31,664 nt of DNA, from contig JBCCQY010000106.1 of NCBI GenBank assembly GCA_039208735.1, positions 1 to 31,664 of the forward strand, read 5' to 3'. The notes beneath the pieces are model-generated. The model was not told the origin of the DNA, did no database searches, and saw only the letters and a program-made list of their open reading frames with translations. Position 1 is the stretch's first letter, and each line of letters begins with the position of its first letter. The stretch comes from Myxococcota bacterium (lineage in GTDB: Bacteria; Myxococcota_A; UBA796; GCA-2862545). This document shows, piece after piece, positions 1,815 to 31,402 of this stretch. Position numbers and translations under genes: made by a program.

Positions 1815-3341
1815 TCATTCGGAATAGGGTGACTCAAATGCATCGTTCGCCAACACCTGAACCGTACGGAGTCCATCCTTTCCCTCCGCGGTCACGCGAA
1901 AGGGGGGCGCCTGGTTGACGACTTCGGAAAGATCGAGGTCTTCGATGGGTTCACCGTCGATCGCAACGACGTAGTCTCCCACCGATAGACCGGCTTCGGC
2001 GGTCGGGCTTTCAGGTTCGATTTCCGAGATTCGCCAGCGCTCTCCATAGAGGTCCCACCCCGCTGGGGGTAACGGTGGCATCACCAATACCACTTCAGAG
2101 GGGAGCACCCCATCCAAGTTCACCGGCACCTTGGAGGACCTCATGGTCCGGCTGCCGAACGTTCGGCTCGCAGAGAACTCGCAGGTCAATCCGTCCTCAT
2201 ACCGAAACAGTTTGAACTCGAACGTGCCATCATCTTCGACAAACGGATGACCGTATACGGACTGGCAGCCCTCCGGCCTGACGTACATCGCTTCGGTGAT
2301 GGGGCCTTCCACACGTCCCGATAGGGTGATGATGGGGCTGGGAGTCAATTCGACGAACTCGAGGCAAGCGCCTGCACCCCAGGCAATGGGCAACGTCTCG
2401 AAACGGTACGTGATGAGCCAGCCAAGCCCGAGCGGATGACGAGGCTGAAACGTAAGCCAGTTGTCGACGGGGATCGCTTTCAAGGGGCCGAGATGCCTCT
2501 CGGTTTCGGGATGAAGTTCGAGGATCTTGGCGTTTGTCGTTAGTTGATGCGACAGCTCACATTGGACGTCGGGCGTCTCGGGCATGCCGATGTAGGTGGG
2601 AACGGGTTCGTCGGGGACCACTGGCGACGCCGCCTGCACCATCGGAGGGGTTGCGACCGGGTCGTCAACGCGATTCACGGCGTCACTCGTACCGGCGAGC
2701 AGACCGATGACGAAAAGCCCAAATGCAATCAAGGTCAACGCCACCGGAGTGGCGGCTCGTGCGGTTGAAGCGCTTCCCCCCATAATGGCAAGGGCGATGG
2801 CACCCGCGGGTCGCGACGGTTTTACCCAGGACCGCAGTTGGTCCTGGTAGGCGATGGACAGCGCCTCTCGTGCCCGAGAAAGCCGTTTACGGACCGCGCC
2901 GTCGGTGAGGCCGAACTCCTCAGCAATCGTTCGAGACGATGCATCGTCGAGATGAAAGCGGATGAGCAATGCCCGCTGCTCCTCCGACAACTGTGCCAAG
3001 GCCTCTCCCATCGCGACGTGGGGAGTCGTCTCGGGGGGAGGACGGACGCCTGCCGCGTGGACCGCGGCATCCTGATGCAGTCGCCGTCGTCGTTCTTGGC
3101 GTCGTTTGAGGTCGATCGATTGGCGCTTGGCCACTTGGCGCAGCCAGGCGCGGGTCTGGCGTGCCTCCCTGATGGTGTGGCGGCGCTGCCAGAGGGTGAC
3201 GAAGACCTCTTGGACCGCCTCATCGGCAAGGTCCCGGTCACCTAGGATCGCTAAGCAAATCGTCCAAACGAGCTGATGGTGTGCTTCGACGAGCGAGGCA
3301 AAGGCGGGCTCGGCATCGCGGCGGGGAGCGGGCAACATCAT
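1815..3341 (-). CDS. ECF sigma-70 factor with TM helix and C-terminal extension ending in a PDZ domain
   Basis: Region 2 AFASLVEAHHQLVW...LADEAVQEVF...AWLRQVAKRQSID; region 4 LSEEQR...IAEEFGLTDGAVRKRLSRAREAL; TM VALTLIAFGLFVIGLLAG; PDZ ISEIEPESPTAEAGLSVGDYVVAIDG. Start moved to ATG 3341/3338, downstream of GAGGAGG (3344-3350). Confidence 0.85.
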   Translation of the reverse strand: MMLPAPRRDAEPAFASLVEAHHQLVWTICLAILGDRDLADEAVQEVFVTLWQRRHTIREARQTRAWLRQVAKRQSIDLKRRQERRRRLHQDAAVHAAGVRPPPETTPHVAMGEALAQLSEEQRALLIRFHLDDASSRTIAEEFGLTDGAVRKRLSRAREALSIAYQDQLRSWVKPSRPAGAIALAIMGGSASTARAATPVALTLIAFGLFVIGLLAGTSDAVNRVDDPVATPPMVQAASPVVPDEPVPTYIGMPETPDVQCELSHQLTTNAKILELHPETERHLGPLKAIPVDNWLTFQPRHPLGLGWLITYRFETLPIAWGAGACLEFVELTPSPIITLSGRVEGPITEAMYVRPEGCQSVYGHPFVEDDGTFEFKLFRYEDGLTCEFSASRTFGSRTMRSSKVPVNLDGVLPSEVVLVMPPLPPAGWDLYGERWRISEIEPESPTAEAGLSVGDYVVAIDGEPIEDLDLSEVVNQAPPFRVTAEGKDGLRTVQVLANDAFESPYSE

Positions 3342-3358
3342 GACCTCCTCGCCCCCCC

Positions 3359-3385
3359 GACGCCTGTCGGGGCTCGGATGTGACA
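3359..3385 (-). promoter_or_regulatory. Candidate ECF-type promoter TGTCACA-N16-CGTC upstream of the ECF gene
   Basis: Minus strand reads TGTCACA tccgagccccgacagg CGTC immediately before the RBS; identical to the ECF41-type consensus as I recall it. Confidence 0.6.
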
Positions 3386-3396
3386 GCACGTAGCGT

Positions 3397-3436
3397 GGTG
3401 CGCGCATACCGCGCATGTCGCGCATGCCGCGCACCA
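3397..3436. repeat. 4 x 9-bp tandem repeat (CGCGCAYNN) with flanking inverted repeat
   Basis: cgcgcatac/cgcgcatgt/cgcgcatgc/cgcgcacca at 3401-3436; tggtgcgcg (3397-3405) is the reverse complement of cgcgcacca (3428-3436). Confidence 0.65.
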
Positions 3437-3516
3437 TCGAAGCCCATCACCACGGGATCGTGACTTGGCCCCGAGCTTGCTCTGACCTCAAGAGCCTCGC
3501 ATGACAAGGAGCCTGC

Positions 3517-5913
3517 ATGTTCCCGTTTCGTACGTTTGCCATCCCGGCTGCGCTGTGGCTCGGGGTGGGCTGTCAGTCCGCCTCCGATCCCCAAGCGAGT
3601 TTCGAAGTCGACGCGTCCATCGCTCCCCGGGTCGCCATGATCGATGGTGTCAACCCGGGGGAGACCCCCCGACCGGTGGGATCGATCCTCACGGAAGATG
3701 GGGTCCAAAGTGACTTCGTTCAGGACGAAATCTCCATTGTGGCTGCGTCTGCGGCCGAAATCCAGCCCCTCCTTGAACGGTACAACGGCACGATCGTGGG
3801 GCAGGTCGAAATCCGGTCTCAGGGATTGTTTAGTTTCCTGGTCCGTATCGACCCCAGTATTCCGGATCCCAGCACCGTCGCTCAGGACTTGGCCTCGACC
3901 AATCCCGACGAACAGCGCAGCTTTGCCGTCGATAGTGACGACAGCCTGGGCCTGCTTGCGGCGGTCGCCCACGAAGCCCGCGAGTTCGGCAACGCCGTTG
4001 ATGTAAACTGGATTCTCGAAGATGCCGATATCGCGAGTGGTTCAACCGCCGAGGCTCCGTCGGGCACGGGCAGTTGGGACGAAGACGCGTTTACCTGGAC
4101 CTACTTTGAAGATGGCGGTAACCAGGACTTTGGCGTCACCGCGGCCTGGGAGCTGTTGCTCGCGGCAGGTCGACTCGACGCGGATGTGCCGATCCTTGTG
4201 GTTGACAACGGGTTCATCGAAAACGATGACTATCCCTTGGATAGCGTGGTTTCCAACCTCAGCGACTGGGATGCGCCAAACAGCGGTGCGTCGACCCACG
4301 GAGCCCACGTGGTGGTCGCGGCCATGGGACGGTTGGACAATGGCTACGGTGCGGCGGGCCCGGCGGCCCCGGTGGGCAGCCTCATCGCCACCCAGCGAGG
4401 GGGCGACGTCTGGTCGACCACCCAACGCATGCGCACAGCGATCGACACCTTCGAGCCACGTATTGCGACGATGAGCCATACCTTCAGCGTGGCTGTCGAC
4501 TGGGTGCCGTTCGGACCGGGCTTCTTGCCCGAACTCGATGCCAGCACGGCGTTGTACTACGACTTCGCCGCCGAAGGCATCGCGATGTTCGGGGCGGCGG
4601 GTAACGATTCGGCTGAGCTATCGAGCGCGTTTGGCACCACCTCGTGGCGTGCTCCGTGCCAGGTTGGCGTGGTGATGTGCGTGGGCGGGCTTGGCTGGAA
4701 CAGCACCAATCGCGCGGGCGGGTCAAACTTCTCGGACGTACCCGATAGAAATCTGGTTGAGTTGTGGGGACCGTTCACGGTGTGGTCGGTGGCAGATGCG
4801 ACTCAGCCCAACTTGAACCAAGCCGACACCGTGAGTGGGACGAGCTTTGCCACGCCGTTTGTGGCCGGCGTCGCGGCCCTCGTGATGGCGGCCGATCCCG
4901 CGTTGAGCAGCGATGCGGTGCGGAGTCTGTTGACTGAAACCGCACAGCCCGCGGGGGCCGGTGCCGATCCGCGAGTGGATGCGCAAGCTGCGGTGGCGTT
5001 TGCCCTCGATCTACCCACGGTGGAGATTCTGGAGCCGAACGATGGGTTGAGCGTGCCCTTGGGGACCGAAATCGTATTTGAGGCGCGCGCCGAAGGGCAG
5101 GCCGACGTCGATTACCAGGTGGTTTGGGACCTGGCGGGGGAACTCGAGCTGACCAATGAAGGGGGCTTTGGCACCCACACGTTGTTCTATGACGAGCTTC
5201 CGCCAGGGACGCACACCATTACCGCCAGCGTTCAGGAGAATGGAACCACAGTGTCGGACTCCATCGAAGTGACCATCGAATACGACGGATTCGACCTGTT
5301 CATCTTGAGCCCCAACAACAATGCCGTCGCATTCTCGAACGAAGTGTTGCCGTTGGTTGGTCATAGTTCGGCCAATCCGTTCATGTTGCCCGACAGTAAT
5401 GTGGTTTGGCGCATGGTCCGGGACGGGGTTTCGGTGTTTACCGATACGGGCCACACTACCGAGGTACCGGCGCACATTGTGGACGAAGGCACCTACCTCA
5501 TCGAGTTCTCGGGCAGCGATGACGTCACTGCATTCACCCGTGACATCGTCCTCAACGTCATCGACAAGCCCGACAACTTCCCCACCGCCACCATTACCCT
5601 TCCGAACAACGGCAACTCGTGGATTGGCCCTGAAATCGTAGAATTCCAGGGCTTTGCTTCGGATCCGGACGACGGCGTGGTGGGCAGTGAGCGACTCCGG
5701 TGGACCGCCATTTGGAGCGGGGGCCAAATTGACCTGTGTACGGGCTTTGCGTGGCCGGGTGGGTCGGGAACCTGTGGGTTTTTCGAAGCCGAACTGCGGG
5801 ATCTCGCGGCCGGTGGCACGACCTACACCATCCTGATGGAAGCGATGGACGACGATGGCAACGTCGACACCGATCAGGTCGGGGTCACGATCGACTTTGC
5901 GCCGGTGCCGTAA
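3517..5913 (+). CDS. S8 (subtilisin-family) serine peptidase lipoprotein with C-terminal Ig-like beta domains
   Basis: AAGGAG RBS; lipobox LGVG-C; catalytic triad VVDNG / HGAHV / SGTSFATPFVAG; oxyanion AAGND; three C-terminal 'I..P.N' Big/PKD-like repeats. Confidence 0.9.
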   Translation: MFPFRTFAIPAALWLGVGCQSASDPQASFEVDASIAPRVAMIDGVNPGETPRPVGSILTEDGVQSDFVQDEISIVAASAAEIQPLLERYNGTIVGQVEIRSQGLFSFLVRIDPSIPDPSTVAQDLASTNPDEQRSFAVDSDDSLGLLAAVAHEAREFGNAVDVNWILEDADIASGSTAEAPSGTGSWDEDAFTWTYFEDGGNQDFGVTAAWELLLAAGRLDADVPILVVDNGFIENDDYPLDSVVSNLSDWDAPNSGASTHGAHVVVAAMGRLDNGYGAAGPAAPVGSLIATQRGGDVWSTTQRMRTAIDTFEPRIATMSHTFSVAVDWVPFGPGFLPELDASTALYYDFAAEGIAMFGAAGNDSAELSSAFGTTSWRAPCQVGVVMCVGGLGWNSTNRAGGSNFSDVPDRNLVELWGPFTVWSVADATQPNLNQADTVSGTSFATPFVAGVAALVMAADPALSSDAVRSLLTETAQPAGAGADPRVDAQAAVAFALDLPTVEILEPNDGLSVPLGTEIVFEARAEGQADVDYQVVWDLAGELELTNEGGFGTHTLFYDELPPGTHTITASVQENGTTVSDSIEVTIEYDGFDLFILSPNNNAVAFSNEVLPLVGHSSANPFMLPDSNVVWRMVRDGVSVFTDTGHTTEVPAHIVDEGTYLIEFSGSDDVTAFTRDIVLNVIDKPDNFPTATITLPNNGNSWIGPEIVEFQGFASDPDDGVVGSERLRWTAIWSGGQIDLCTGFAWPGGSGTCGFFEAELRDLAAGGTTYTILMEAMDDDGNVDTDQVGVTIDFAPVP

Positions 5914-8900
5914 GCACTTCGTGCAGGCGGCGTGCCCGGGTCTCCATGCCCAACTTCCGAAGCCGCTCGATGGCGGCTTGTACCGCATCGGGACTTGAGG
6001 AAGGGCCGCCACGCTCTCGTTCGATGAGGGCGCGAAGCCCGCTCGCGTGGGCCCGGAGTCCCCGGAGCGCGTGGGGACTGGTGGCCAACAGGGTATTGAG
6101 GGTGGTTGCCGCGTTGTCGAGGTCACCCCGGTCCCATTCCAGATCCGCACGACGCATCGCCACGTAAGCAGCAAGCCAGCGGTCACTGGATGAGGTGGCC
6201 AGCGCCTCCGCTTGGGCGAAGTGCTCCTGTGCGGCGACTTGATTTCCCTCCGACGACCATGCGCGAGCGGCCTCCACATGGGCCCACGCACTCAACATGG
6301 GCAACTTCGTGCCTTCCCCGACCGCTTGAAGGGCTTTCGCCTTGGCCTGGTCGGGTTCGCCAAGCGTGTGGTGGGCATTGGATTCGATGATGGATGCAAA
6401 CACCCGAACGGGACGTTGCATGGGCCCCAGGGCTTCGATGGCCGGGCGCGTGGCCTCTACGCGAGCAAGGGCCTCGTGAGGACGGTCGCGTTCCAGATCA
6501 AGCTGAGCGAGGTTCAGCTCGGCCATGGGGTGCTGCCATGGCTTGCCTGCTGCGGCCAACAAGTCGAGCGACTTCGTGAAGGCCTCGACGGCCGCGTTGA
6601 CCTCGCCCATCTGCCAGCGGACCTCGGCGAGGTTGAGGACCACGAACGACACCCCCTCTTGGTAGTGGATCTCCTCGGCGATGGTCAGCGCCATCTCGAG
6701 TTGTTCGCGGGCCGACAGGTAGTCGCCCTGCTGCATGTCCAAGCGCGCCAGTGCAGTTCGCGTCACGTTCTCCCGTCGGCGCATGCCCAATCGCCGGTAC
6801 ACCTTGAGGGCTGCTTCGACGTGCGTCCGCGCCGCCGACGGCTCTTCGGTCGTTTCGCCGAGTGACCGGTAGGCTTCGGCCAACGCGATGGGCATGCCCT
6901 GGCCGGCTTCGATCGCTTGTTCAAGCTGCCGCTGAGCCCGGGCTTGTTCGTCCACGACGATGCTCAAGCGACCCAAGCTGACCAGTGCAAGCACGGTCAT
7001 CTCACGGTGCTGAGTCAGTCGTCCCACGCTCAACGCGTAGCCGAGCAGGCCCCGAGCCGCGGTGTCGTGTTCGATGAGCAGGCGACCCAGCATGAGGGCT
7101 GACCACCCCTCCATCCCTGGATCACCCAGCACATAGGCTAGGTCTCGCGCCTCTTCGCACCGAAGCCGTCCTTCTTCCTTGCGGCCGAGGTGGGTGAGGA
7201 TGAGGCCCAGGGTCAGGCGAGCGAGAACGTTCTCTCGAGCGTCCGATCCGATGCGGACCGCGTCTTCTGCCCAGCCCAACGCCCGGGGGTCGTCGGTGCG
7301 GTGGGCCAATCGCGCGGCGGTCTCGAGGAGCGCGGCATGGCCGTCGGCAAGCGTGAGCACCCGCTCGACCAAATCGAGTCCACGCCGGGCCGGTCCTCGG
7401 TCGTGCAACACGCGTCCGGCGGCCACCGCACAACCTGCCGCCGCCGTGAGATCGTCGAACTCGATGCCCGCGTCGATGCCGGCGATGAAATTCTCGAGAT
7501 CGGCGGCTTGGCGTTCGCGGAGTGGATCTTGAGGAGGCGTCAGGCCATTTACGGCGCTGCCCACGCGGGCGAACCAACGCGCGTGCCGAAGTGCGAGGGG
7601 TTTGGGATCATTCAACTGCTTTGATGCAAACTGCCGAACCGACTCAAAAAGGCGGAATCGCGGTTGGCGAAACGTGGGCTGTCGAACCATCAACATCGAT
7701 CGGTTCAACAGCCGCTCGACGAGGTCGGTGACCCACGTGCCTTCGGGCGTGCGCTGGACGATGCGTTCGGCATCTTCGATGGTGAACCCACCCCGAAACA
7801 CCGACAGCTGCCCCAACCCCCGCTGCTCCTCCGTCGAAAGCTGGGCCCAGGACGTTCGCACGACGCGTTCGAGAGGATCGGGAGGCCCATCGGCCATCCT
7901 CGCCATCACCTCATCGGGCGTGTGGGTACCTGCATGGGTCGCGGCAAGTTCGAGAGCCAGCGGCAGGCCGTCGAGTTGCTCGGCGAGCTCGACGAGCTTG
8001 ATTTCCGCGGCGGCGTCCGTCCAGGCCTCATTCGCGCCGGCTCGAAGGGCGCGATCGCGCAGTAGGCCCACCGCCTCTGCGGTCGCAAGGGGTTCGAGCC
8101 GCATCCGTCGGGCCCCTTCGAGTTGCAGCGTCGATCGGGAGGCCACCACAAAACGCGCCTCTTGGGCGATCGCTTGCCAGACCCAAAGCACCTCTCGAAC
8201 CGCGTCGAGTGCTTCGTCGGCGTGATCCAGCACGACCAGCGTGGATCCGAGGGCACGGAGCTGATGGCCGATTTGGCTGACCACACTCGCCTTCGACCCA
8301 GGGCCCAGGGGCAATCCCAACGTCGTCGCCATGGCCACGCAAACCGCAGGCACCTCCTGGACGGCTTCAAGGTCGCACACCCAGGTCCCGCCGGAGTACT
8401 GCCGGGCCGTCCGTGCCGCGTGGTGGAGCACCAGCTTCGATTTACCCACCCCGCCTGGACCCTGCACTGCGACCACCATCGCACCCTGAAGCGCATCATC
8501 GAGGCGCTCGAGGTCAGCGCGTCGGCCTACCACGGGTTCGCGGCCTGATGACCGGGAGGGACGGCGCTGGCTCGACGAAACGAGCGCCTCCGATTCAGCT
8601 TCCGGTTCCTCGGTCGCCCACTCCACCAATGAGGAGCCGGTGGCCGGAAGCTCGGCCAACGCTTCGCCAAGGGCGATACACGTGGCGAATCGGTCGTCGG
8701 GGGTGGGCTGCAGACACCGCTCCACCACCGCTCCCAGTCCCCCGAAGGCCTCGTCGATGCGTTGTTGCAGGTCGCCTTGCGCAAGCGCTTCGTAGAGTCG
8801 CTCGTGGCGACGGAGGACGTCGTCGCCGGGTTCGGACCTCACCAGGCGCTGTCCAAGCGTCATCTCCGCGAGCAGAACGCCCAGAGCGAACTGATCTGTG

Positions 8901-9502
8901 CGGGGGTCGACCGGGCCGTGGGCTTCGACCTGTTCGGGGGCCATGTAGCCGGGCGTTCCTCCCGACTCATCGGGGGCGGTTCCGGCGAGCACCGCGAGTC
9001 CCAGATCGGCGAGCTTCACCACGGCACCGGGGGTCAACAGCACGTTGCTCGGCTTGAGATCGCGATGCACGATGGGATGCGGCCGTCCCTCAACCTCGAG
9101 TTCGTGAGCGTGGGACAGGGCACTGGTGAGCTGGGCTCCCACCTGTTGGACGGCGCGACCGGGCATCGCGCCGCGGCGTTGAAGGAGCGACAGTAAGGTC
9201 GACCCTTGGACCCACTCCATGGCGATCAGCCACCAGGGCGCTTCGTAGGCCAGATCGTAGACTTCCACAAGGTTGGGGTGGTCGAGCAGTGCGCCAAGGC
9301 GGGCCTCCGAGACCAGTTTGCTCGATGGCCCACCAGGGATCAATTTGACGGCCAACCGTTTCCGAAAACCGGCTGGACCATGGAGGGTGGCCCGGTAGAC
9401 GACGCCCATTGCGCCGCTTCCCACTTGTTCCTCCAAGGTGTACCGACCAAGTGAGGTGGGCAACGACGCAGGCGGGGTCGCGGCGGGCGAAAAGTTCGAC
9501 AT
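5885..9502 (-). CDS. Ser/Thr protein kinase fused to a STAND-type ATPase and TPR repeats
   Basis: Kinase GSGAMGVVY, AVK, HRDLKPSN, DLG, GTPGYMAPEQ; Walker A GPGGVGKS; Walker B VVLD; LDGLPLALELAA; LSVFRGGF; RFRLFESVRQFA; helical TPR-like C-terminus. Confidence 0.9.
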   Translation of the reverse strand: MSNFSPAATPPASLPTSLGRYTLEEQVGSGAMGVVYRATLHGPAGFRKRLAVKLIPGGPSSKLVSEARLGALLDHPNLVEVYDLAYEAPWWLIAMEWVQGSTLLSLLQRRGAMPGRAVQQVGAQLTSALSHAHELEVEGRPHPIVHRDLKPSNVLLTPGAVVKLADLGLAVLAGTAPDESGGTPGYMAPEQVEAHGPVDPRTDQFALGVLLAEMTLGQRLVRSEPGDDVLRRHERLYEALAQGDLQQRIDEAFGGLGAVVERCLQPTPDDRFATCIALGEALAELPATGSSLVEWATEEPEAESEALVSSSQRRPSRSSGREPVVGRRADLERLDDALQGAMVVAVQGPGGVGKSKLVLHHAARTARQYSGGTWVCDLEAVQEVPAVCVAMATTLGLPLGPGSKASVVSQIGHQLRALGSTLVVLDHADEALDAVREVLWVWQAIAQEARFVVASRSTLQLEGARRMRLEPLATAEAVGLLRDRALRAGANEAWTDAAAEIKLVELAEQLDGLPLALELAATHAGTHTPDEVMARMADGPPDPLERVVRTSWAQLSTEEQRGLGQLSVFRGGFTIEDAERIVQRTPEGTWVTDLVERLLNRSMLMVRQPTFRQPRFRLFESVRQFASKQLNDPKPLALRHARWFARVGSAVNGLTPPQDPLRERQAADLENFIAGIDAGIEFDDLTAAAGCAVAAGRVLHDRGPARRGLDLVERVLTLADGHAALLETAARLAHRTDDPRALGWAEDAVRIGSDARENVLARLTLGLILTHLGRKEEGRLRCEEARDLAYVLGDPGMEGWSALMLGRLLIEHDTAARGLLGYALSVGRLTQHREMTVLALVSLGRLSIVVDEQARAQRQLEQAIEAGQGMPIALAEAYRSLGETTEEPSAARTHVEAALKVYRRLGMRRRENVTRTALARLDMQQGDYLSAREQLEMALTIAEEIHYQEGVSFVVLNLAEVRWQMGEVNAAVEAFTKSLDLLAAAGKPWQHPMAELNLAQLDLERDRPHEALARVEATRPAIEALGPMQRPVRVFASIIESNAHHTLGEPDQAKAKALQAVGEGTKLPMLSAWAHVEAARAWSSEGNQVAAQEHFAQAEALATSSSDRWLAAYVAMRRADLEWDRGDLDNAATTLNTLLATSPHALRGLRAHASGLRALIERERGGPSSSPDAVQAAIERLRKLGMETRARRLHEVLTAPAQSRS

Positions 9503-22946: not shown

Positions 22947-24410
22947 ATGAGAACAACCCTCGCATGGGTGAGCCTGCCCGTCGTGGCGGTCGCCCTGCTG
23001 GCGCGTTCGGGCGTCGCGCAGCCCCCGGGCCCGGCCCGGTTCTGTGAGCATTACCCGGAGGCTCCGGTGTGTTCGGCGGGTGAGGCATCCTGCGCCACCT
23101 GCCACGTTGCGCCCCCCCAGCTCAATGCCTACGGCAGCGACATCGCGGTGGCCTTGGTTCCCAACGAATCGCGGCCGTTGCACGCCGATGTGTTTTCGTC
23201 GAACCTGGTGGATGCCTTGGTCGCCGTCGAACCCTTGGACTCGGACGGGGACGGCTCGTCGAACCTCGACGAAATCCAATTCGGCTCCGATCCTGCGGAT
23301 GCCGAAAGCACGCCGGCGGTCCGTGATTGTACGGATGCAGATCCGAAGGATGCGTGGGATCTATGTGGCTATGACGTCGACTTCGCCTTTAAGCGTGTGA
23401 TGGTCGATTTCTGCGGTCGTTCGCCGACGTTTGAAGAGCGTGAGGCATTCCTCGACGACAAGGATCCCGTCACCGCACTGCACGACCAGCTCGACCGCTG
23501 CTTCGAGACCGAAGCGTGGCGGGGCATTGGTGGGCGGGTTTGGAACCTGGCCAACCGCAAGATCGCCCCCACCCAGGCGGTAAAGTCCGGGCGGGACTCT
23601 GGGCCGATTCCGCTTGGCGATTACGATGACGATTACGCTTACTTCGTATGGACCCAGACGGAAGATCGGGATGCGCGCTTGGTGCTGACTGGGCAGTCGT
23701 TTGTGGAAGCCAAGCGAATGGGTGGCCGGACCGAGTACCAGGTTTGGGACCGCGACGCCGAAGAAGACTACGAGGCCCGAGGCTACGATCGGGCGCAGTT
23801 CGTGCCTCGCGATCGACGGGCCGGCATGTTGACCCACCGGTGGTTCCTCGTCGTCAATACGATGTTTACCGCCGTTCCTCGAACGACCGCAGCTCAGGCC
23901 TACCGGGCCTACCTTGGCTACGACCTTGCGAGGCTGGAAGGGCTTTTCCCAGTGCCGGGAGAGCCCGTGGACTACGACGTAAAGGGCGTGACGGAACCTG
24001 GGTGCGCGGCGTGCCACTCGACCCTCGATCCGCTGTCGTATCCGTTCAGTCGCTACGAAGGCATCGGTGGAGGAGACCCCAACAGCCTGTCCTACACCTA
24101 CGACGCAGATCGCATGCCGTTCTACGTCGATACCGACGGCCCGCTCGTGGCCGATACCCCTGAAGCCGGGGTGCTCTTCGGGGAGCCGGTCGCTGACCTT
24201 GTGGAGTGGGCGACGGTCGCCGCCAATAGTGAAGCCTTCCGGCGTGCGACGGTGCTCGATTACTGGCGGATGCTTTTGAGGGAAGACCCCCGGGCATCCG
24301 AGCAGGATGCCTTTGGCAAGCTCGTGCAGGCTTTCGGGACCGAGCACGACTACCGCGTGCAGTCGATGCTGCACGATCTCATCGACACGGAGGCCTACGG
24401 TGCGCCTTGA
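22947..24410 (+). CDS. Exported protein with two c-type heme motifs (CATCH, CAACH), a DSDGDG Ca-binding loop and a DUF1588-like region
   Basis: GGAGG RBS; Sec signal; SCATCH...LNAYG...DSDGDGSSNLDEI; RAGMLT; CAACHSTLDPLSYPF. Confidence 0.75.
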   Translation: MRTTLAWVSLPVVAVALLARSGVAQPPGPARFCEHYPEAPVCSAGEASCATCHVAPPQLNAYGSDIAVALVPNESRPLHADVFSSNLVDALVAVEPLDSDGDGSSNLDEIQFGSDPADAESTPAVRDCTDADPKDAWDLCGYDVDFAFKRVMVDFCGRSPTFEEREAFLDDKDPVTALHDQLDRCFETEAWRGIGGRVWNLANRKIAPTQAVKSGRDSGPIPLGDYDDDYAYFVWTQTEDRDARLVLTGQSFVEAKRMGGRTEYQVWDRDAEEDYEARGYDRAQFVPRDRRAGMLTHRWFLVVNTMFTAVPRTTAAQAYRAYLGYDLARLEGLFPVPGEPVDYDVKGVTEPGCAACHSTLDPLSYPFSRYEGIGGGDPNSLSYTYDADRMPFYVDTDGPLVADTPEAGVLFGEPVADLVEWATVAANSEAFRRATVLDYWRMLLREDPRASEQDAFGKLVQAFGTEHDYRVQSMLHDLIDTEAYGAP

Positions 24411-24993
24411 TGCTATGCGATTGCTTTTGGTCGGGGGCGCCACCTTGTGGTTGGTCGCGTGTGGTCGCACGCCCGAAGAGGCGAGAACCACCAGCGCGGC
24501 GGGTCGTATTCTGCCCAAGTCGGGGGAGGTATGGTCACGCGACCTCGCCGATGGCCTCGACTTGCATACCTGGGAACTGTGTCGGGAACTTGGTGAGGTG
24601 GATTGTGTCACCGAGGCCCACCTCATCACCCTTGGCGGCGTTGAACCGACGCGGCTCGGCATCGACGAACCGCTCGCCGAGCCCTCGATCAGCGCGCCGA
24701 TTGCGTTCGATCGCGTGGCCATGGCCGCCTGTGCCGAGCGCTACACGCGCGACGTGGCCGGACCTGCAGTGGTGTTTGGCTCGGTGATCGACAAAGACGG
24801 AACGCGGGCCCGGCGGGAGGTGACGACGCGCCTTGTGCAACGCCTGCTCGGACGCAATCCGACGCGCGACGAGACCGATGCCCTGCTCGCCCTAGGGCCC
24901 GAACTCGAAGCCATCTCCTCGGACCCGGTGCGAGATTGGTCCATTGGCGCATGCGTCATCGTGGCCACCTCCCTCGAAGCCCTCTTTTACTGA
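24400..24993 (+). CDS. Hypothetical lipoprotein (DUF1595-like helical C-terminus)
   Basis: Start GTG 24400 (GGAGG upstream) or ATG 24415; lipobox LVA-C; LC.ELG..DC...H...LGG; RLLGRNPT..E; C......E..FY. Confidence 0.7.
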   Translation: MRLDAMRLLLVGGATLWLVACGRTPEEARTTSAAGRILPKSGEVWSRDLADGLDLHTWELCRELGEVDCVTEAHLITLGGVEPTRLGIDEPLAEPSISAPIAFDRVAMAACAERYTRDVAGPAVVFGSVIDKDGTRARREVTTRLVQRLLGRNPTRDETDALLALGPELEAISSDPVRDWSIGACVIVATSLEALFY

Positions 24994-25003
24994 AGGAGCC
25001 GAC

Positions 25004-26521
25004 ATGTCTTCTCATCGAATCGCAGGCGTTCCTTCAAGGCGCTCGTTTCTGCGGGGATTGGCTGCATTTTCCGGAACGTTGGCCGGCTCGTCTGCATTGC
25101 TGAATGCAACCGCGTTGGGGCAGCAGGCGGCCGACCCCCGGTTCCTCATTGTGCTCACGGCCAGTGGCGGGGGCTCGATCATCGACGGACCGCTCGCCAT
25201 CCGGGCGAGTGAATCGACCGCTCCGGACGAACTCAACACCTTCCCCGATTCGCTGGTCGTGGGCTGGGAGGACTCCCCGTTCCGGGCCGTGGACTTTTCC
25301 GGCCCGGCGATCGGGCAGATTCCCGCTGCCTTCCGCGTGGCTCCTTCTGAGGTGGTGGCCCGTCATCGGGAAGCGATGATGGTGGCTACGTGGACCCGCA
25401 GCAGCGTCAACCATCAGGTCGGGCAGCGACGCGCCGTGACCGGCAACGAAGCGTGGCGAGGCCGCACCATGCAGGAGATGGTGGCTTGGCAGTACGGGTC
25501 GGAGGCCCCGATTCCCAACGTCCACCTGACGGCCGGCTTTGGCTACAATGAGCCCGGTACGGACGGCACGATTCCTCCATGGGCCCGCGGTCAGATCGTC
25601 GCGAATCCCGCCGTGTGGCCGTTGTCGCTCGATGGCAGTCGTGGTCAGCCTGGCGTATCCCCCGAGGTGTTGGCCGCGGTTCGTCGTCACCGCAATGACG
25701 TGTTCGAGCCTGCTACCCGGTTTGATCAGGTGTTTGGGGCGTCGCCACGCGCGGTGACCTGGAAGGACCTCCGAGGTACGCCTCAACAACGCATCGAAGG
25801 CCTCGACCTGATCACCAAGCTCATGGTCAACGCCTCGGGAGGCTCGCTTGAGCCGTTCGGTCTGGAGCGTTCGCCAGCCGCCGACCTCGTGTTGTCGGCC
25901 TTCCCGAACGTAGCCGCGGATCCCATCGAGGCCAAGGCGGCACTTGCGTTTCTGCTACTGAAGTATCGCGTCAGCGTGTCGGTCACGCTCGGGCCCGATT
26001 TTGGGTTCGTCTACGGTGAGGGCGAGGGCGATGCGGGGACCGATCTGCCCCTGAATAGCGTGCTCAACCCGCCGCTGGCCTTTGATGTGAGCCACCAGGG
26101 CCATCGCTCGGGGCAAGCCGTCATGTGGTCGCGTCTGTATCGGATCCTCGATGGGCTGATCGGCCTGCTCCGCGCCGAGGACTACGGCGATGGCACGAGC
26201 CTGTGGGATCGCACCATGATCTACGTCGCGAGCGACTTTGGCCGGACGAAGAACCGACCCACGGGAGCGGAGGATTGGGGGAGTGGCCACGACCTGAACA
26301 ATGGCATCCTCGTGGCTTCGCCGCTGGTGCCTGGCAACACCTTGCGGGGCGGTGTCGATCCGAACACCGCACTGACCTATGGGTTCGATCCGCAAACCGG
26401 CGCCCCGAGCCCCGGTCGTCAGATGTCGGAAGCCGAGATCTTCTCTGGGCTCCTCGGAGCCCTTGCCATCGACACGAGCGGGAGCGGCTTGCCCGATGTC
26501 CCCGCGATGCGGAGGTCGTGA
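25004..26521 (+). CDS. Tat-exported DUF1501-like protein
   Basis: AAGGAG RBS, ATG 25004; SRRSFL twin-arginine motif; FLIVL..SGG; FDVSH; LWDRTMIYVASDFGRT; GSGH; GGVD. Confidence 0.8.
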   Translation: MSSHRIAGVPSRRSFLRGLAAFSGTLAGSSALLNATALGQQAADPRFLIVLTASGGGSIIDGPLAIRASESTAPDELNTFPDSLVVGWEDSPFRAVDFSGPAIGQIPAAFRVAPSEVVARHREAMMVATWTRSSVNHQVGQRRAVTGNEAWRGRTMQEMVAWQYGSEAPIPNVHLTAGFGYNEPGTDGTIPPWARGQIVANPAVWPLSLDGSRGQPGVSPEVLAAVRRHRNDVFEPATRFDQVFGASPRAVTWKDLRGTPQQRIEGLDLITKLMVNASGGSLEPFGLERSPAADLVLSAFPNVAADPIEAKAALAFLLLKYRVSVSVTLGPDFGFVYGEGEGDAGTDLPLNSVLNPPLAFDVSHQGHRSGQAVMWSRLYRILDGLIGLLRAEDYGDGTSLWDRTMIYVASDFGRTKNRPTGAEDWGSGHDLNNGILVASPLVPGNTLRGGVDPNTALTYGFDPQTGAPSPGRQMSEAEIFSGLLGALAIDTSGSGLPDVPAMRRS

Positions 26522-26522
26522 C

Positions 26523-27059
26523 ATGCTTCGTGGCATCTGGTTGCTTGGACAGTTGGCCTGTGCCCCCGATCGCGACGGAGACGGGGTTGTGCGGAGCGAA
26601 GACTGCAACGATGACGATCCATCGATCTACCCCGGAGCCCGGGAGACCGAGGGAGACGGCATTGACTCGAATTGCGATGGGGAGGACCCCGGATTTGCCT
26701 TCGTCGGCGATTGGGCCCTGACCGACGTAAGCGTCTCGATCGCGGGCTACCTCATCGAAGGCCTCGACATCGCAGGCCAATTCACGGTGGCGACCGACCT
26801 GACCGCGACCACCGATCTGGCGGTCACCGCGAAGGGCCTTGCCCTTCCGCTGGACTTGGTTGGTGCGGCAAGCCCCATCCCAGGGGAGGGACTGTTTTGG
26901 CTCGACATGGAAGGGACGCTTGGCGAAGGCTCCCTCATGAGCCGGTCCGTGGCGCTGTGGGACTGTGAGTGGAGCGACGGCGCGATCGAGTGCGTGGGCA
27001 CGTTGCTGGTGTTTGGCGACAACTACAACGTCTGGGCGGTCTTCGAAGCGGTGCCCTGA
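26523..27059 (+). CDS. Lipoprotein with a myxobacterial putative metal-binding (MopE-like) motif
   Basis: LA-C lipobox; DRDGDG....DCNDDDPSIYPGARE..GDGIDSNCDG; beta-rich C-terminus. Confidence 0.8.
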   Translation: MLRGIWLLGQLACAPDRDGDGVVRSEDCNDDDPSIYPGARETEGDGIDSNCDGEDPGFAFVGDWALTDVSVSIAGYLIEGLDIAGQFTVATDLTATTDLAVTAKGLALPLDLVGAASPIPGEGLFWLDMEGTLGEGSLMSRSVALWDCEWSDGAIECVGTLLVFGDNYNVWAVFEAVP

Positions 27060-27142
27060 CCTTCGCTGAAGATCGCTGACCCAACTCCTGCGGTCCGCCA
27101 TTCCTCCCCCTCGTACCTTGATGCATACGCGGAGGGAGCGAC

Positions 27143-27877
27143 ATGCGCGGACTTGGACTGGTAATTCTGCTTGCGGCGGCGTGCGACGACGTTGGTTCGA
27201 ATGTCGATAGCGGATCGCTGCTGTTCGGCGGTGCGTTTGACGCATTTTCCGAGAACGTCGTCATCTACCTGGACGGCGATGAAGTGGTCTTCGAAACCAA
27301 CGGGTTGCCTGACCACGAGTCGCCTTACTGGGGAGTGGGCCACGAGTTGTATGTCGCACCCACGGTAACGACCGAAGAACAGATGGCGCCCGGCAACATC
27401 GATCGGTTTCAGGGCACCTTTACGCTTCGAGTGCCCGCCGCGCCCACCTTGGCCAGCCAGTCGAGCGCTACAGGCCTCGGTCCCATCGGCATCGCAGTCA
27501 GTGGGGCAGTGATTTACAACGACCAGGAAGGGCCCAACGTACCCCTCGATAACGCAGTGGGCTCGCTCGACTTCACCGGTGCTCATACCGGCCCACAGTC
27601 GTACCACTACCACCTGGAACCGTTGGCGTGGTCCGAGGACGACGATGTGCTCATCGGCATTATGGCCGATGGGTTCTACCTGTATGGCCGGCGAGAGCCC
27701 GCATCCGAAGGGGGCGACTACCCGAGCGACTTGGACACCTCCGGCGGTCACACCGGACCGACCCTCTACAGTGACACGCCAGAGTACCACTACCACATTC
27801 AAAACGAAGCCTATTTGGGTCAGTACTACCTGTTGTTCCCCGGTGATTACCAGGGCACGCCGAGCACGATCCGGTGA
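27143..27877 (+). CDS. YHYH family lipoprotein
   Basis: LAAA-C lipobox; TNGLPDH, LGPIGIAVSG, GAHTGP.SYHYH, IGIMADGF.LYG, LD.SGGHTG...EYHYH. Confidence 0.9.
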   Translation: MRGLGLVILLAAACDDVGSNVDSGSLLFGGAFDAFSENVVIYLDGDEVVFETNGLPDHESPYWGVGHELYVAPTVTTEEQMAPGNIDRFQGTFTLRVPAAPTLASQSSATGLGPIGIAVSGAVIYNDQEGPNVPLDNAVGSLDFTGAHTGPQSYHYHLEPLAWSEDDDVLIGIMADGFYLYGRREPASEGGDYPSDLDTSGGHTGPTLYSDTPEYHYHIQNEAYLGQYYLLFPGDYQGTPSTIR

Positions 27878-28464
27878 TGGTGCTTTGGCTGTTGGCCTGT
27901 GGCGTTGACTCGGAACTCGAACCTCTCGTCGGGCTAGATGATCTTGAACTGGTCCGGGGAACCGGCGTGTGGATCCTCGATGGTGCGCCGTACACCGGGG
28001 TGGCAGAGCAGGTCGCACCCGGCGGGATGGTGTTTGAGCGGGTGACGTTTCGAGAGGGGCGTCGCCACGGTCGACGCGAGCAGTTCCACCCCGATGGCAC
28101 CCTGCGGTTGCAAGCCGACTATGTCGATGGGCGGCGTGACGGAATGGTTCGAACCTGGTGGTCCAACGGGCACCTGCGGGCCGAGGCCGAACTCGAGGAT
28201 GGGGTTGCGCACGGCGTTCAGCGGCAGTGGTACGAAAGCGGCGCCTTGTTCAAGGAGCTGCACTACGACCACGGCGCTGAACAAGGGCTGCAACGAGCTT
28301 GGCGCGAGAATGGGGTGCTCTACGCCAACTACGAAGCCCGCAATGGCCGAATCTACGGCCTGAAGCGTTCAAAGCTATGTTTTCAGCTTGATGATGAGGA
28401 GGTCGTGCGTGGTGACGTTCGCCTGGATGTGGCTGGGGTGTTCGACCCCAACGACCAACCCTGA
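27877..28464 (+). CDS. MORN-variant repeat (YwqK-like) lipoprotein
   Basis: TGATG overlap with YHYH; LLA-C; repeats G.RHG....FHPDG / GRRDG..RTWWSNG / G.AHG..RQWYESG / G.EQG..RAWRENG; tail YGLKRSKLC. Confidence 0.85.
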   Translation: MVLWLLACGVDSELEPLVGLDDLELVRGTGVWILDGAPYTGVAEQVAPGGMVFERVTFREGRRHGRREQFHPDGTLRLQADYVDGRRDGMVRTWWSNGHLRAEAELEDGVAHGVQRQWYESGALFKELHYDHGAEQGLQRAWRENGVLYANYEARNGRIYGLKRSKLCFQLDDEEVVRGDVRLDVAGVFDPNDQP

Positions 28465-29029
28465 GCCGCTGCCTTACTATGCATCGCGGGACTTCACGCC
28501 CCACTGGTTTACGCCGGACACGGTGCCGGAGGGGTTTCACGCCATCCCGGCGTTTTCACTCACCGACCAACACGGGGCGACGGTGACCGACGCCGATCTT
28601 GACGGGAATGTCTCGATCGTGAGCTTTTTCTTCACCCGCTGTGGTGGCATCTGCCCAAGCTTGACGGCTTCGCTGCACGGCGTGGCAACTGAGTTTGCGG
28701 GCCGGGATGACGTGCAGCTGCTCGGCCACTCCGTAATGCCGACGGATGACACGGTCCCGGTCCTGAAGGCGTTTGCCGACAAGCACGGGATTACCTCGCC
28801 ACAGTGGCACCTGCTGACCGGACCCCGACCCGAGATCTATGCCCTTGGGCGCGAGGCTTACTTCGTCGAAGAAGATCTAGGGGAGCCGGTCGACCCCGAC
28901 GCGTTCCTGCACACCGAGAACGTTGTGATGGTGGACGGCACACGGCGGATTCGCGGCATCTACAATGGGCTCAATGCCAGCGCGATGCGCCAGCTCGTGG
29001 CCGACGTGAAGACGGTCCTCGCGGAGTAG
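28391..29029 (+). CDS. SCO1/SenC family copper chaperone
   Basis: FSLTDQHG, FFFTRCGGICP (CxxxC), WHLLTG, FLHTEN (His ligand), IRGIYNG; lipobox WLG-C. True start may be GTG 28409 after AGGAGG. Confidence 0.92.
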   Translation: MMRRSCVVTFAWMWLGCSTPTTNPEPLPYYASRDFTPHWFTPDTVPEGFHAIPAFSLTDQHGATVTDADLDGNVSIVSFFFTRCGGICPSLTASLHGVATEFAGRDDVQLLGHSVMPTDDTVPVLKAFADKHGITSPQWHLLTGPRPEIYALGREAYFVEEDLGEPVDPDAFLHTENVVMVDGTRRIRGIYNGLNASAMRQLVADVKTVLAE

Positions 29030-29035
29030 GGCGCG

Positions 29036-30235
29036 TCATTCAGAGCGGGAAATGTGAAACCCCGCGTCGGTGATGGACTGCTGGAGTCGGGACAAGGCGG
29101 CGTTCCCCGAAATGACGGCGGTGTTCGCGTCGAGGTTGATCACGGCGGACTGCACCCCATCGGTGGCCAGAAGCGCCCGCTGCACTTTGTTCGCGCACCC
29201 TTCGCAGGTCATGCCTTGCACTTCGATGGTCAAGGCACGCTCATCATCGGAGACGGCGGTGCGGTTCGCGAACCACAACATCGCATCGTCATAGGCGAAT
29301 CGAGCGAGGAGGCCCAGCAGGACGACCGCACTTGCGATGCTCCACCACGTCGTGTGGGCATGGGCGGCCGCCACCGTTGCGGTGAGACTGCCAAATACCT
29401 GCTCGTAGAGCAATCCGAATCCGATGCTTCCCGCGAGAATGGTGGCGAGGTACACGCCAAGCACGTTGCGCCCAAAGGTGCGGTACACCGTGCCAAGGGT
29501 TGCCACGTTGGTCGCAGGCCCTGCCATGAGGAACACGAGCGCGGCGCCGGTGGGCATGCCGGCGGCGACCAAGGCCGCCGCGATGGGAACGGACGCAGTG
29601 GCGCAGACATAAAGCGGCAACGAGATGCCGAGTACGGCCCCAAAGGCCAGGGCCGTAGCTCCTCCGGTGAGACCGGCAAACGCGTCGACGGGGAGCGCCG
29701 TCGTCAAGGCCGCAGAGAACAACACCCCAAATGCCAACCAGCCCCATACCTCACGGATCACATCGATCGCGTGGTGCAACGCGTCGGAAAGGGTGTGAAC
29801 GTGCTCGTGAGCGTCGTCGGCCTCGATCTTCGAGACGCCCCTTGGGGTGATTGCGTCGGTCGTCCAGCCTGCCACCAGGCCGGTGACCAGTGCCGCGCCC
29901 ACCTTCCACAACGCAAACGGCCATCCGAGCATGCCGGCCGAGACGAGGACCGAATCCACCCCTGTTTGGGGCGTGGCGACCAAGAACCCCACGCTGGCTC
30001 CATCGCTCGCCCCATTCCGCTTGAGCCCGATTCCCGCTGGGATCACGCCACAGGAGCACAGCGGGAGGGGCACGCCAAGGACCACGGCCTTGGCCACCCC
30101 CCAGCCGCCCGACAGCTGGCTCTTTATAAACCCCGAGGGCACGAGGTAGTGCAGCGCACCGCTGACGGCGGCACCCAGCAACAGCCATGGGGAAAGCTCT
30201 AGAAGAACGTCCCAAACGTTTACGAGGAAGGTCAT
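29036..30235 (-). CDS. SO_0444-like (DUF318/ArsP-type) metal permease with a C-terminal HMA domain
   Basis: PLPLCSCGVIP, FLVATPQTGVDS, PLYVCATASVP, FLMAGPATN; His patches HEHVH and HAH; HMA GMTCEGC. Confidence 0.9.
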   Translation of the reverse strand: MTFLVNVWDVLLELSPWLLLGAAVSGALHYLVPSGFIKSQLSGGWGVAKAVVLGVPLPLCSCGVIPAGIGLKRNGASDGASVGFLVATPQTGVDSVLVSAGMLGWPFALWKVGAALVTGLVAGWTTDAITPRGVSKIEADDAHEHVHTLSDALHHAIDVIREVWGWLAFGVLFSAALTTALPVDAFAGLTGGATALAFGAVLGISLPLYVCATASVPIAAALVAAGMPTGAALVFLMAGPATNVATLGTVYRTFGRNVLGVYLATILAGSIGFGLLYEQVFGSLTATVAAAHAHTTWWSIASAVVLLGLLARFAYDDAMLWFANRTAVSDDERALTIEVQGMTCEGCANKVQRALLATDGVQSAVINLDANTAVISGNAALSRLQQSITDAGFHISRSE

Positions 30236-30525
30236 CGGCTTGCGACTCCGGCGTAGCGCGCGAACACATCCATCAGGTCATCGATTCGAGCCACCTGCTC
30301 ATCTTCGTCGTCACCATTAAGGGCGTCCGCCACACAGGTTTCGACATGGTTGCGCAAGACAAGCTGGCCGACGCGGGCTAACGCGCCGCGGACCGCCTGT
30401 AGCTGCAACAGGATGTCGACACAGTCGCCGTTGTCTTCGATCATGCGACGAACCCCCGTGAGCTGGCCCTCGACCCGCTTGAGACGTGCCACCAGCTTCT
30501 TGTGTTCGCCGGAGTCCATATGCAT
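30232..30525 (-). CDS. csoR: CsoR-family copper-sensing transcriptional repressor
   Basis: RLKRVEGQL.GV.RM...DCVDIL.Q..AVRGAL......NHVETC (x-C-H-C fingerprint); GGAG RBS before ATG 30525; ATGA overlap with the permease. Confidence 0.85.
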   Translation of the reverse strand: MHMDSGEHKKLVARLKRVEGQLTGVRRMIEDNGDCVDILLQLQAVRGALARVGQLVLRNHVETCVADALNGDDEDEQVARIDDLMDVFARYAGVASR

Positions 30526-30535
30526 GACTGCTCCA

Positions 30536-30575
30536 ATACCCCCGGGGGGCATTGGTGTATACCCCCGGGGGGTAC
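30536..30575. promoter_or_regulatory. Tandem CsoR-type operators
   Basis: ATACCCCCGGGGGGCAT (30536-30552) and TATACCCCCGGGGGGTAC (30558-30575). The distal site lies in the spacer of a candidate TTGTTG-N17-TATACA promoter on the minus strand. Confidence 0.85.
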
Positions 30576-30595: not shown

Positions 30596-31402
30596 CTAAG
30601 GCAAGAGGTACTGGGCCACGCTGAAGGTGTAGACGCCGACCAGGAAGTAGTGCCCGTCAGGCAGTGAGTTGCCCCCCAAAATGATGTCTTCGTAGGGGAG
30701 AGGCACGGCAGGCCAGCCGTCTTCGTCGAGCTGAAGTTCACCTTCGGCCGAAAGCAATCCGGCAACCACCATGTGGGAGGCCCACGTCGACGGTTCCCAG
30801 ATATCGGAGACCCACGAGCCACCAGCCAATTGCGCTTCGCCATGTGCTTCGGCCCAAAAGGTGTCGGCGAGGGCGCTCTTCTTGTCTTCCAGCAGGCCTT
30901 GCACGTCGCTCCGCAGGGTGCCCACGCCGACGCCCCACAGTTTCGAGGCGATGAGGCCGCCTGGGTCGGGCATGTAGTCGGGATCGACGTCTTCACACCC
31001 ATTGGTGGTTACGCGGGCCTGAGCCGGGACCGTGAAGCCTACGTGGGTCATCAGGGTGCTTTCGATGTCTTCGGTGGCGTCCTCAAAGACCCAGCTCTCG
31101 AGCGAGACACTCGCCGCATCGTCCATGATGAGGTTCACCCGGCACTCGAGGTCTCCTGAGGCATCAAACATTCGGATGGCCACCAGCGGGGCGAGTTCTG
31201 TGCCATTGTCGAAAAAGGTGCGGAGCGTGGCGGCCTCCCGATCCACCGCGAAGGAGGCTTGCACCGTAAAGCTCGTCGGAGCCCAGCCCCGAGGTTGCGG
31301 CGTTCCCGAGTCGATCGAGGGCAACACCGGGGGATCTTCCGTCTCGACGACCTCGCTCGTGCAGCCGCCAAGCCCCAACCACAACCATCCTGCAGCAACC
31401 AT
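30596..31402 (-). CDS. Hypothetical lipoprotein
   Basis: GGAGG RBS; LGLGG-C lipobox; acidic beta-rich body. Confidence 0.65.
   Translation of the reverse strand: MVAAGWLWLGLGGCTSEVVETEDPPVLPSIDSGTPQPRGWAPTSFTVQASFAVDREAATLRTFFDNGTELAPLVAIRMFDASGDLECRVNLIMDDAASVSLESWVFEDATEDIESTLMTHVGFTVPAQARVTTNGCEDVDPDYMPDPGGLIASKLWGVGVGTLRSDVQGLLEDKKSALADTFWAEAHGEAQLAGGSWVSDIWEPSTWASHMVVAGLLSAEGELQLDEDGWPAVPLPYEDIILGGNSLPDGHYFLVGVYTFSVAQYLLP

Follow-up and report, generated by a model that had tools for sequence, protein, structure and literature searches.

Results

Gene content of the locus

The window analysed here is a 31,664-nt stretch of DNA from a Myxococcota bacterium (contig JBCCQY010000106.1), in which a first-pass annotation had proposed a candidate extracytoplasmic copper/heme system abutting a CsoR-controlled permease; read broadly, that system would take in nine closely packed genes, A to I. 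The nine genes fall into three blocks that are unrelated to one another, and the larger system is a chance juxtaposition. The middle block, a trio encoding a YHYH-domain protein, a MORN-repeat protein and an SCO protein, is on sequence grounds a widely conserved candidate for a new copper protein cassette.

The trio core lies on the plus strand and consists of E (27143–27877), a putative YHYH-domain lipoprotein of 244 aa (PF14240; Cys14); F (27874–28464), a putative MORN_2-repeat lipoprotein of 196 aa with a conserved C-terminal Cys169; and G (28409–29029), a putative SCO1/SenC lipoprotein of 206 aa that starts at a GTG codon after a GAGGAGG ribosome-binding site. It is preceded on the same strand by the four genes of block 1 (A to D) and followed by the two minus-strand genes of block 3 (H and I). 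Reading the open reading frames (ORFs), gaps and overlaps from the sequence confirms that A to G are seven tightly spaced plus-strand genes: the gaps from A to E measure 4, 10, 1 and 83 nt, after which E and F overlap by 4 nt and F and G by 56 nt. The stop codon of G lies 6 nt from that of the permease gene H, stop to stop and tail to tail. The run had been described as abutting a csoR–permease operon; that operon is on the minus strand and converges on the seven genes. The D–E and G–permease junctions are each spanned by one contig of ~97% identity from a run of a different study, so the layout is not a misassembly.

The motifs attributed to the run are present as well (CATCH and CAACH in A, SRRSFL in C, a PF11617 match in D, two YHYH motifs in E and CxxxC plus His in G). 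Signal peptides and lipoboxes of the window genes were called by eye, without a predictor, and on that judgement the Sec, Tat or lipoprotein signals claimed for all seven proteins hold. A crude lipobox regular expression matched 65 of 92 YHYH, 37 of 78 MORN and 56 of 73 SCO homolog ORFs, counts that are weak support because start codons were unrefined. G+C content at third codon positions (GC3) is alike across the blocks (0.70–0.80), and a promoter and terminator scan of the region gave matches at chance level. No terminator-like site was found in the 83-nt D–E gap, and transcription of block 1 may therefore continue into the trio.

Linkage and spread of the trio

We examined the trio in two sets of loci. 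For E, there were 261 related genome loci, of which we took the best 80 (60 of these hold at least 4.2 kb upstream); for F, we took the best 80 of 232 related metagenome loci. In the YHYH-seeded set, a MORN gene follows in 78/80 loci and an SCO gene is present in 73/80; in the MORN-seeded set, YHYH is found in 75/80, the five misses all falling at contig ends, and SCO in 68/80. The YHYH-seeded loci span at least eight phyla (59 Bacteroidota, 7 Balneolota, 4 Rhodothermota, 3 Gemmatimonadota, 2 Calditrichota, 2 Pseudomonadota, 1 Myxococcota, 1 Verrucomicrobiota and 1 unassigned). Records related to the YHYH protein are mostly marine, and they include strains that are cultured according to their record titles (Aquimarina litoralis, Joostella atrarenae and Roseivirga ehrenbergii).

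Within the window genome's own order, we compared 153 other genomes, a set in which kin are non-independent and many genomes are incomplete, so that the counts are descriptive. Nine of the ten genomes with an SCO ortholog also have a YHYH ortholog, where 0.65 would be expected. Of 251 genomes from Flavobacteriaceae, to which Aquimarina belongs, 32 carry a top-tier YHYH match and those same genomes are the ones with a top-tier MORN match; top-tier SCO occurs in 33, the one extra match sitting at a contig start; these tiers were cut at visible score gaps chosen after the scores had been viewed. A MORN match of any tier is present in at most 55/251. Second-tier MORN gave 22 matches, and all 20 loci that were followed (20/20) have the order YHYH–MORN–SCO with a divergent YHYH protein and the same terminal Cys. 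Where a trio locus is missing its SCO gene, the genome carries an SCO of 48–51% identity elsewhere (5/5 tested), with no YHYH or MORN gene beside it.

Many loci of trio relatives also resemble the CnrYXH/NccYXH and Spy/CpxP systems in carrying genes for an extracytoplasmic function (ECF) sigma factor, an anti-sigma-like protein and a Metal_resist/LTXXQ-like protein. An ECF sigma gene is found in 29/80 YHYH-seeded loci and a Spy/CpxP/CnrX-like gene in 20/80, and both are absent near the window trio. The likeness to Spy (E 2.7e-4) and NccX (E 0.043) is weak and fails to distinguish a metal sensor from a general envelope-stress system. Near the trio in loci L003, L012, L030, L298, L305 and others, the ECF sigma gene stands with a small anti-sigma-like gene and a membrane-anchored Spy/CpxP/CnrX-like protein that has two invariant His. 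Genes for EF-hand, CotH-kinase and sulfatase proteins are other frequent additions. Among the frequent neighbours in the 80 YHYH-seeded loci, we found no transporter, no cox family and no toxin-type, secretion or polymorphic-toxin genes.

The YHYH protein

E matches PF14240 at 37.3 bits (Pfam cut-off 25) and contains two repeats, D143-x4-H148..Y154HYH157 and D198-x4-H203..Y215HYH218, which supply two sets of one Asp and three His (D143/H148/H155/H157 and D198/H203/H216/H218). These eight residues are retained in 98–115 of 119 rows of an alignment that includes distant homologs (E plus 118 of 150 distant matches of at least 200 aa). YHYH identity across phyla stays at 56–72%. The YHYH alignment took in 76 of the 80 main proteins and 8 paralogs, with near-duplicates and truncated copies left out. 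In a tree, E clusters with 10 YHYH copies of the order to which its genome belongs (98 in the Shimodaira–Hasegawa-like approximate likelihood ratio test, SH-aLRT) inside a mostly Bacteroidota family. We considered whether this one genome had acquired the trio horizontally and rejected the idea, given the similar GC3 across the blocks and the clustering of E with those 10 copies.

The structural model of E is of moderate confidence (predicted local distance difference test, pLDDT, 71.5). Foldseek against the PDB returned nothing at E≤0.001, and a wide VIA-align search found no Z≥2 among 48,161 chains; at a pLDDT of only 71.5, a missing fold match is not proof of a new fold. Trio-type YHYH proteins of clade 2 have no Cys (20/20), and about half of those of clade 1 have a single Cys at the position of A187.

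Related YHYH domains occur in other settings. PF14240 is treated as a putative host-recognition domain in PMC7029224, and 10.64898/2026.10.18.759936 presents it as an uncharacterised family without metal or enzyme characterisation. The trio YHYH protein shares the domain and the His/Asp set of the phage-tail family (PMC7824862), from which it differs as a putative cellular lipoprotein tied to MORN and SCO; the window YHYH protein had no match among phage records. Four distant stand-alone YHYH paralogs in the order (L161–L164, in genomes G091, G109, G090 and G033) all have four Cys, arranged as D-x-C-x-x-H twice plus two more, and these the trio YHYH protein lacks. Three of the four share a downstream gene family. 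Elsewhere, YHYH domains stand in fusions with thrombospondin type 3 repeats, with a MopE-type repeat or with fn3 (L013:3522-5486; L018:5310-6740; L035:6360-7880).

The MORN protein and its predicted complex with the YHYH protein

F matches MORN_2 (PF07661) at 47.5 bits (Pfam cut-off 29.6). Its C-terminal Cys is kept in 74/75 aligned homologs (74 of 78 were aligned, near-duplicates and truncated copies being left out) and in 21/21 of a divergent-clade set. The nearest Atlas cluster of F bears the automatic label 'YwqK family antitoxin' (0.95), which is probably wrong for the trio MORN proteins.

The YHYH and MORN proteins are predicted to form a heterodimer. Complex prediction, proposed with the first-pass annotation as a check, gave E and F an ipSAE of 0.73 (median of 3 runs), as against 0.00 for the best of 3 controls; the score is a model confidence, not a measurement, and its input was the alignments made in this analysis. 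The ipSAE mark is attained by 116/157 solved complexes and by 2/215 mismatched pairs. Contacts agree between runs at 71% or more, with partner pLDDT of at least 81, and because no solved YHYH-like structure was found, the prediction is unlikely to reproduce a memorised structure. At the predicted interface, residues 40–45 of E pair as a strand with residues 26–31 of F, and a groove of F holds the E loop P151/Q152, between H148 and H155. Cys169 of F is absent from the listed contacts. On the MORN side, conservation is 0.68 at the interface and 0.60 in the rest of the protein.

The SCO protein and its paralogs

G matches PF02630 at 75.3 bits (cut-off 22.8), and its profile matches Bacillus-type Sco1/YpmQ structures at E 2e-31 to 4e-30. 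The ligands C78-x3-C82 and H168 are complete, and CxxxC plus His is kept in 65/65 aligned sequences (G and 64 of 73 homologs, near-duplicates and truncated copies left out). An extra His of this kind separates copper-binding SCOs from thioredoxins (PMC6696091).

Each of five named Bacteroidota genomes encodes several full-length SCOs, the trio SCO among them; others lie in a coxIII–DUF420 operon (3 genomes), beside a gene for a NirK-like multicopper protein (2), beside feoB (3) or in a second trio (1). SCO paralogs do therefore adjoin copper clients, in the cox operon or by the NirK-like gene. The trio SCOs branch apart from the cox and nirK SCOs in a 42-protein tree (cox branch support 96/92), and G is not a cox-operon SCO. 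A related SCO of similar score is present in 241/251 of the sampled Flavobacteriaceae genomes. Among the paralogs, the feoB-near SCO was seen in L278, L281 and L284 (G154–G156), with an adjoining RseP-type protease gene in L278 and L281, and in L282 and L285 the gene for a NirK-like multicopper–cytochrome c fusion precedes an FGE-sulfatase-domain gene and an SCO gene of its own.

It had been remarked that no cytochrome oxidase lies in the window. This is correct, but the genome encodes an aa3-type oxidase operon that has a CuA motif and no SCO next to it, a cbb3-type operon, two further SCO-like genes and a PCuAC, and with this inventory the trio SCO may serve in trans. The aa3-type operon (G000:C50:30815-39126) includes genes for a subunit II with the CuA motif and for a diheme cytochrome.

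The flanking blocks

Block 1 comprises four plus-strand genes. A (22947–24410) encodes a diheme-motif protein with a putative Sec signal, weakly PSCyt2/PSCyt3-like; the residues of its two heme motifs (C49/C52/H53 in CATCH and C353/C356/H357 in CAACH) are invariant in 17/17 aligned homologs, which match PSCyt3 in 14/17 cases and PSCyt2 in 12/17, all under the Pfam cut-off, as A itself is. B (24415–24993) is a putative lipoprotein outside any named family, with four invariant Cys and no convincing Pfam match. C (25004–26521), with its SRRSFL motif, appears to be Tat-exported (TAT_signal matches 40/70 of its homologs). It had been labelled DUF1501, a remote likeness that survives in weak matches of 33/70 homologs (best E 3.4e-4), but membership does not: C has no match to PF07394 at E<0.01. 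The model of C (pLDDT 87.5) aligns with the Xac NPP structure 7mw8 (Z 16.1, root-mean-square deviation 4.1, 241 aligned residues) and matches sulfatases by Foldseek (best E 9.5e-4), and an alkaline phosphatase superfamily core fold (AP/NPP/sulfatase) is predicted; its profile had 0 matches among PDB sequences. Two named homologs of C come from a Myxococcota bacterium and Haliangium. D (26523–27059), the fourth gene, is a putative lipoprotein with a PF11617 match and one MopE-type Asp/Cys repeat. The first-pass annotation counted this motif among the metal-ligand motifs of the run; as evidence for copper we reject it: the window genome has at least 150 scored copies of the repeat, and the motif is therefore no specific copper signal.

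Around C we widened 20 loci (13 close and 7 distant), finding A in 17/20 and B in 19/20, and a full-length D directly downstream in 12/13 close loci, the contig of the 13th stopping inside C. The arrangement recalls the DUF1501–PSCyt/PSD modules of PVC (Planctomycetes–Verrucomicrobia–Chlamydiae) bacteria, whose function is given as unknown (PMC3542564): block 1 likewise sets a remotely DUF1501-like Tat protein beside a remotely PSCyt2/3-like CxxCH protein, and differs in that all its matches fall under Pfam cut-offs and that it has four genes, two of them for putative lipoproteins. The window genome has 12 other DUF1501 loci over the cut-off. Block 1 is probably a diheme/hydrolase-fold module of the DUF1501–PSCyt kind whose proteins are exported, and nothing ties it to copper.

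Block 3 is likely an ordinary self-repressing metal-efflux operon. H (29036–30235, minus strand) is an SO_0444-like permease with an HMA domain (ArsP_1 and HMA in Pfam) that scores slightly below the NCBIfam cut-off (NF033936, 278.7 bits against 300). I (30232–30525, minus strand) is a CsoR/RcnR-family repressor of 97 aa that matches PF02583 with its Cys-His-Cys set (C35, H60, C64); the RicR, FrmR and RcnR models are all below cut-off. Two tandem TAC-X9-GTA pseudopalindromes with G/C tracts (30537–30551 and 30560–30574), of the operator type described for CsoR (PMC3902906), lie 12–50 nt upstream of csoR, and nowhere else in the genome does the strict form occur. Among 29 relatives of the permease, taken with 1.5-kb flanks, csoR adjoins the permease in 17, all 17 with the operator before csoR. 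The block thus shares its Cys-His-Cys set, tandem operators and HMA permease with CsoR/RcnR and SO_0444-type Cu/Zn efflux (PMC3219624, PMC3902906), SO_0444 being required for growth of Shewanella under Zn or Cu stress (PMC3219624).

A CsoR regulon that takes in genes A to G is not supported, as a CsoR-type operator lies upstream of csoR only. Only the sites at 30537 and 30560 match at 0–1 mismatch, none comparable lies upstream of A or E, and the remaining operator-like sites are 3-mismatch matches, at chance level.

Elsewhere in the window, a lipoprotein-like ORF of 268 aa that matches neither Pfam nor NCBIfam (30596–31402, minus strand) lies just upstream of the csoR operators; it is absent from the related loci examined, and a similar-looking ORF start, unaligned, lies 4.4 kb from SCO in L295. 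The window also encodes a Ser/Thr kinase–NB-ARC/STAND–TPR fusion of 1205 aa (5885–9502, minus strand), an S8 peptidase with an Ig domain (3517–5913, plus strand) and an ECF sigma factor fused to a PDZ domain (1815–3437, minus strand).

Independence of the blocks

Blocks 1 and 3 adjoin the trio by chance. A, B, C, H and I were found in 0/80 YHYH-seeded and 0/80 MORN-seeded loci, and D turned up once in the YHYH-seeded set, as a bare motif. From the other sides, MORN and SCO were found in 0/20 C loci, and SCO beside the permease in 0/29 relatives. One of the 20 C loci has a distant (26%) YHYH gene 2.6 kb away on the other strand. Among the own-order genomes, 17 of the 153 have a C ortholog of >60% identity, 10 a close YHYH, 10 an SCO ortholog and 58 the permease; C and YHYH orthologs occur together in 0/153 (1.1 expected), and YHYH and the permease in six (3.8 expected), always on different contigs. 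The neighbourhood comparison proposed with the first-pass annotation thus goes against a single copper/heme system, since the three blocks do not co-occur. The annotation also suggested that the YHYH protein or a heme/DUF1501 complex is a copper-loaded surface enzyme or copper-acquisition module; the first option gains support, as tight linkage to SCO is seen for YHYH and not for the complex.

Discussion

What the trio does can be approached through its SCO protein, a family known as copper chaperones or thiol reductases. The simplest explanation is that the SCO protein serves in dedicated metallation of the YHYH–MORN heterodimer, because an SCO with a full set of copper ligands accompanies a His/Asp protein and that protein's Cys-containing partner; we hold this tentatively, at somewhat less than an even chance, on sequence and modelling. 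SCO would deliver copper to the His/Asp sites of the envelope heterodimer, possibly by way of the single conserved cysteine of MORN, a role that Cys169 may have, or alternatively would keep the YHYH–MORN metalloprotein reduced, and the loaded YHYH protein would have a catalytic or stress-protective job. Export as lipoproteins and the SCO-to-YHYH direction are inferred, as is copper, which is read from the SCO protein only. The more ambitious claim seems doubtful though worth stating, namely that this YHYH subfamily would be new copper proteins of marine bacteria in at least eight phyla, with a PDB-absent fold, two Asp/3-His sites, a MORN heterodimer and dedicated SCO metallation through the MORN cysteine, and hence a non-CuA, non-CuB SCO client.

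As in known SCO-client cassettes (sco with cox; SenC2/PCuAC with NosZ; sco with nirK-like genes), the trio SCO appears exported, has CxxxC plus His, stands beside a presumed metalloprotein and, where checked, is additional to the oxidase-operon SCO. The trio differs in the nature of this neighbour, a His/Asp protein that matched no solved fold and lacks the cysteines of a CuA site, in the addition of an obligate-looking one-Cys MORN subunit and in having no PCuAC in the cassette. Our literature searches, with most subscription journals and supplements (and any gene-neighbourhood tables there) outside their scope, found no description of the trio.

Several observations weigh against dedicated metallation. 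The characterised clients of SCO proteins are CuA sites, with their bridging cysteines, and the CuB site of cbb3 oxidases (PMC7558416, PMC6696091), and the mature window YHYH protein has no Cys; the same sources give some SCOs a thiol reductase role. At the YHYH interface, conservation is 0.75, no higher than the 0.79 seen elsewhere in that protein. Three flavobacterial genomes have a feoB-adjacent SCO that falls within the trio-SCO clade (100/99), and because these SCOs share the clade without YHYH, the exclusivity of the trio SCO is weakened. The four distant YHYH paralogs in the order have no MORN or SCO nearby, one exception genome (G147) has MORN–SCO with YHYH not found, and in another (G143) there is a fragment of YHYH with neither MORN nor SCO after it. 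Zinc has also been proposed, both for the YHYH domains of phage tails, with a predicted Zn2+ site and hydrolase activity (PMC7824862), and in a 2026 preprint that predicts a three-His zinc site for YHYH.

These zinc predictions underlie an account that we consider unlikely but deserving of attention, in which YHYH would be an envelope hydrolase that uses zinc or another metal than copper, MORN would regulate or inhibit it, and SCO would act as a thiol-disulfide reductase on the MORN cysteine, so that envelope stress would throw a redox switch. In the predicted complex MORN covers a loop next to site 1, and its one conserved Cys would make a natural target for a thiol reductase; such activity is documented for SCOs (PMC7558416, PMC6696091), and the ECF sigma (29/80) and Spy/CpxP/CnrX-like genes (20/80) would suit a stress response; the copper-type extra His of SCO, however, is kept in 65/65 (the distinction drawn in PMC6696091), and no phage record matched the window YHYH protein. 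Copper might instead flow in reverse, YHYH–MORN scavenging it at the surface and passing it to SCO for oxidases or nitrite reductase encoded elsewhere, much as a PCuAC-like donor would. The His-rich sites, the mostly marine records, the window genome's CuA-type operon without an adjacent SCO and the failure of the PCuAC family to match in 5/5 trio-bearing Bacteroidota genomes are consistent with this, but the window genome does have a PCuAC, no transporter is among the frequent neighbours, and the trio is lacking in most sampled Flavobacteriaceae (a MORN match in at most 55/251) where a related SCO is present in 241/251; we regard it as rather improbable.

Two further alternatives have little to recommend them. 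That YHYH and MORN are a toxin–immunity pair with SCO incidental is very improbable: the antitoxin label of F's nearest Atlas cluster, the adjacency of the genes and their predicted complex would fit such a pair, but YHYH is 56–72% identical across phyla, both proteins look like lipoproteins, SCO is retained, and the frequent neighbours include no secretion or polymorphic-toxin genes. We give the least credence of all to one copper/heme system of all nine genes under CsoR, for which the tight spacing, possible read-through across the 83-nt gap, the distant YHYH at 1/20 block-1 loci and the six genomes with both YHYH and permease orthologs could be cited. Linkage is zero in 80 + 80 + 29 loci and C and YHYH share 0/153 genomes, the six shared genomes hold the two genes on different contigs, the permease operon is convergent, and operators stand before csoR only.

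Many bacteria hold SCO paralogs without a known target, and the trio links these to the uncharacterised family PF14240. As a small soluble three-protein system with named residues, present in cultured strains, it makes both the role of an extra SCO and the ligand of YHYH testable.

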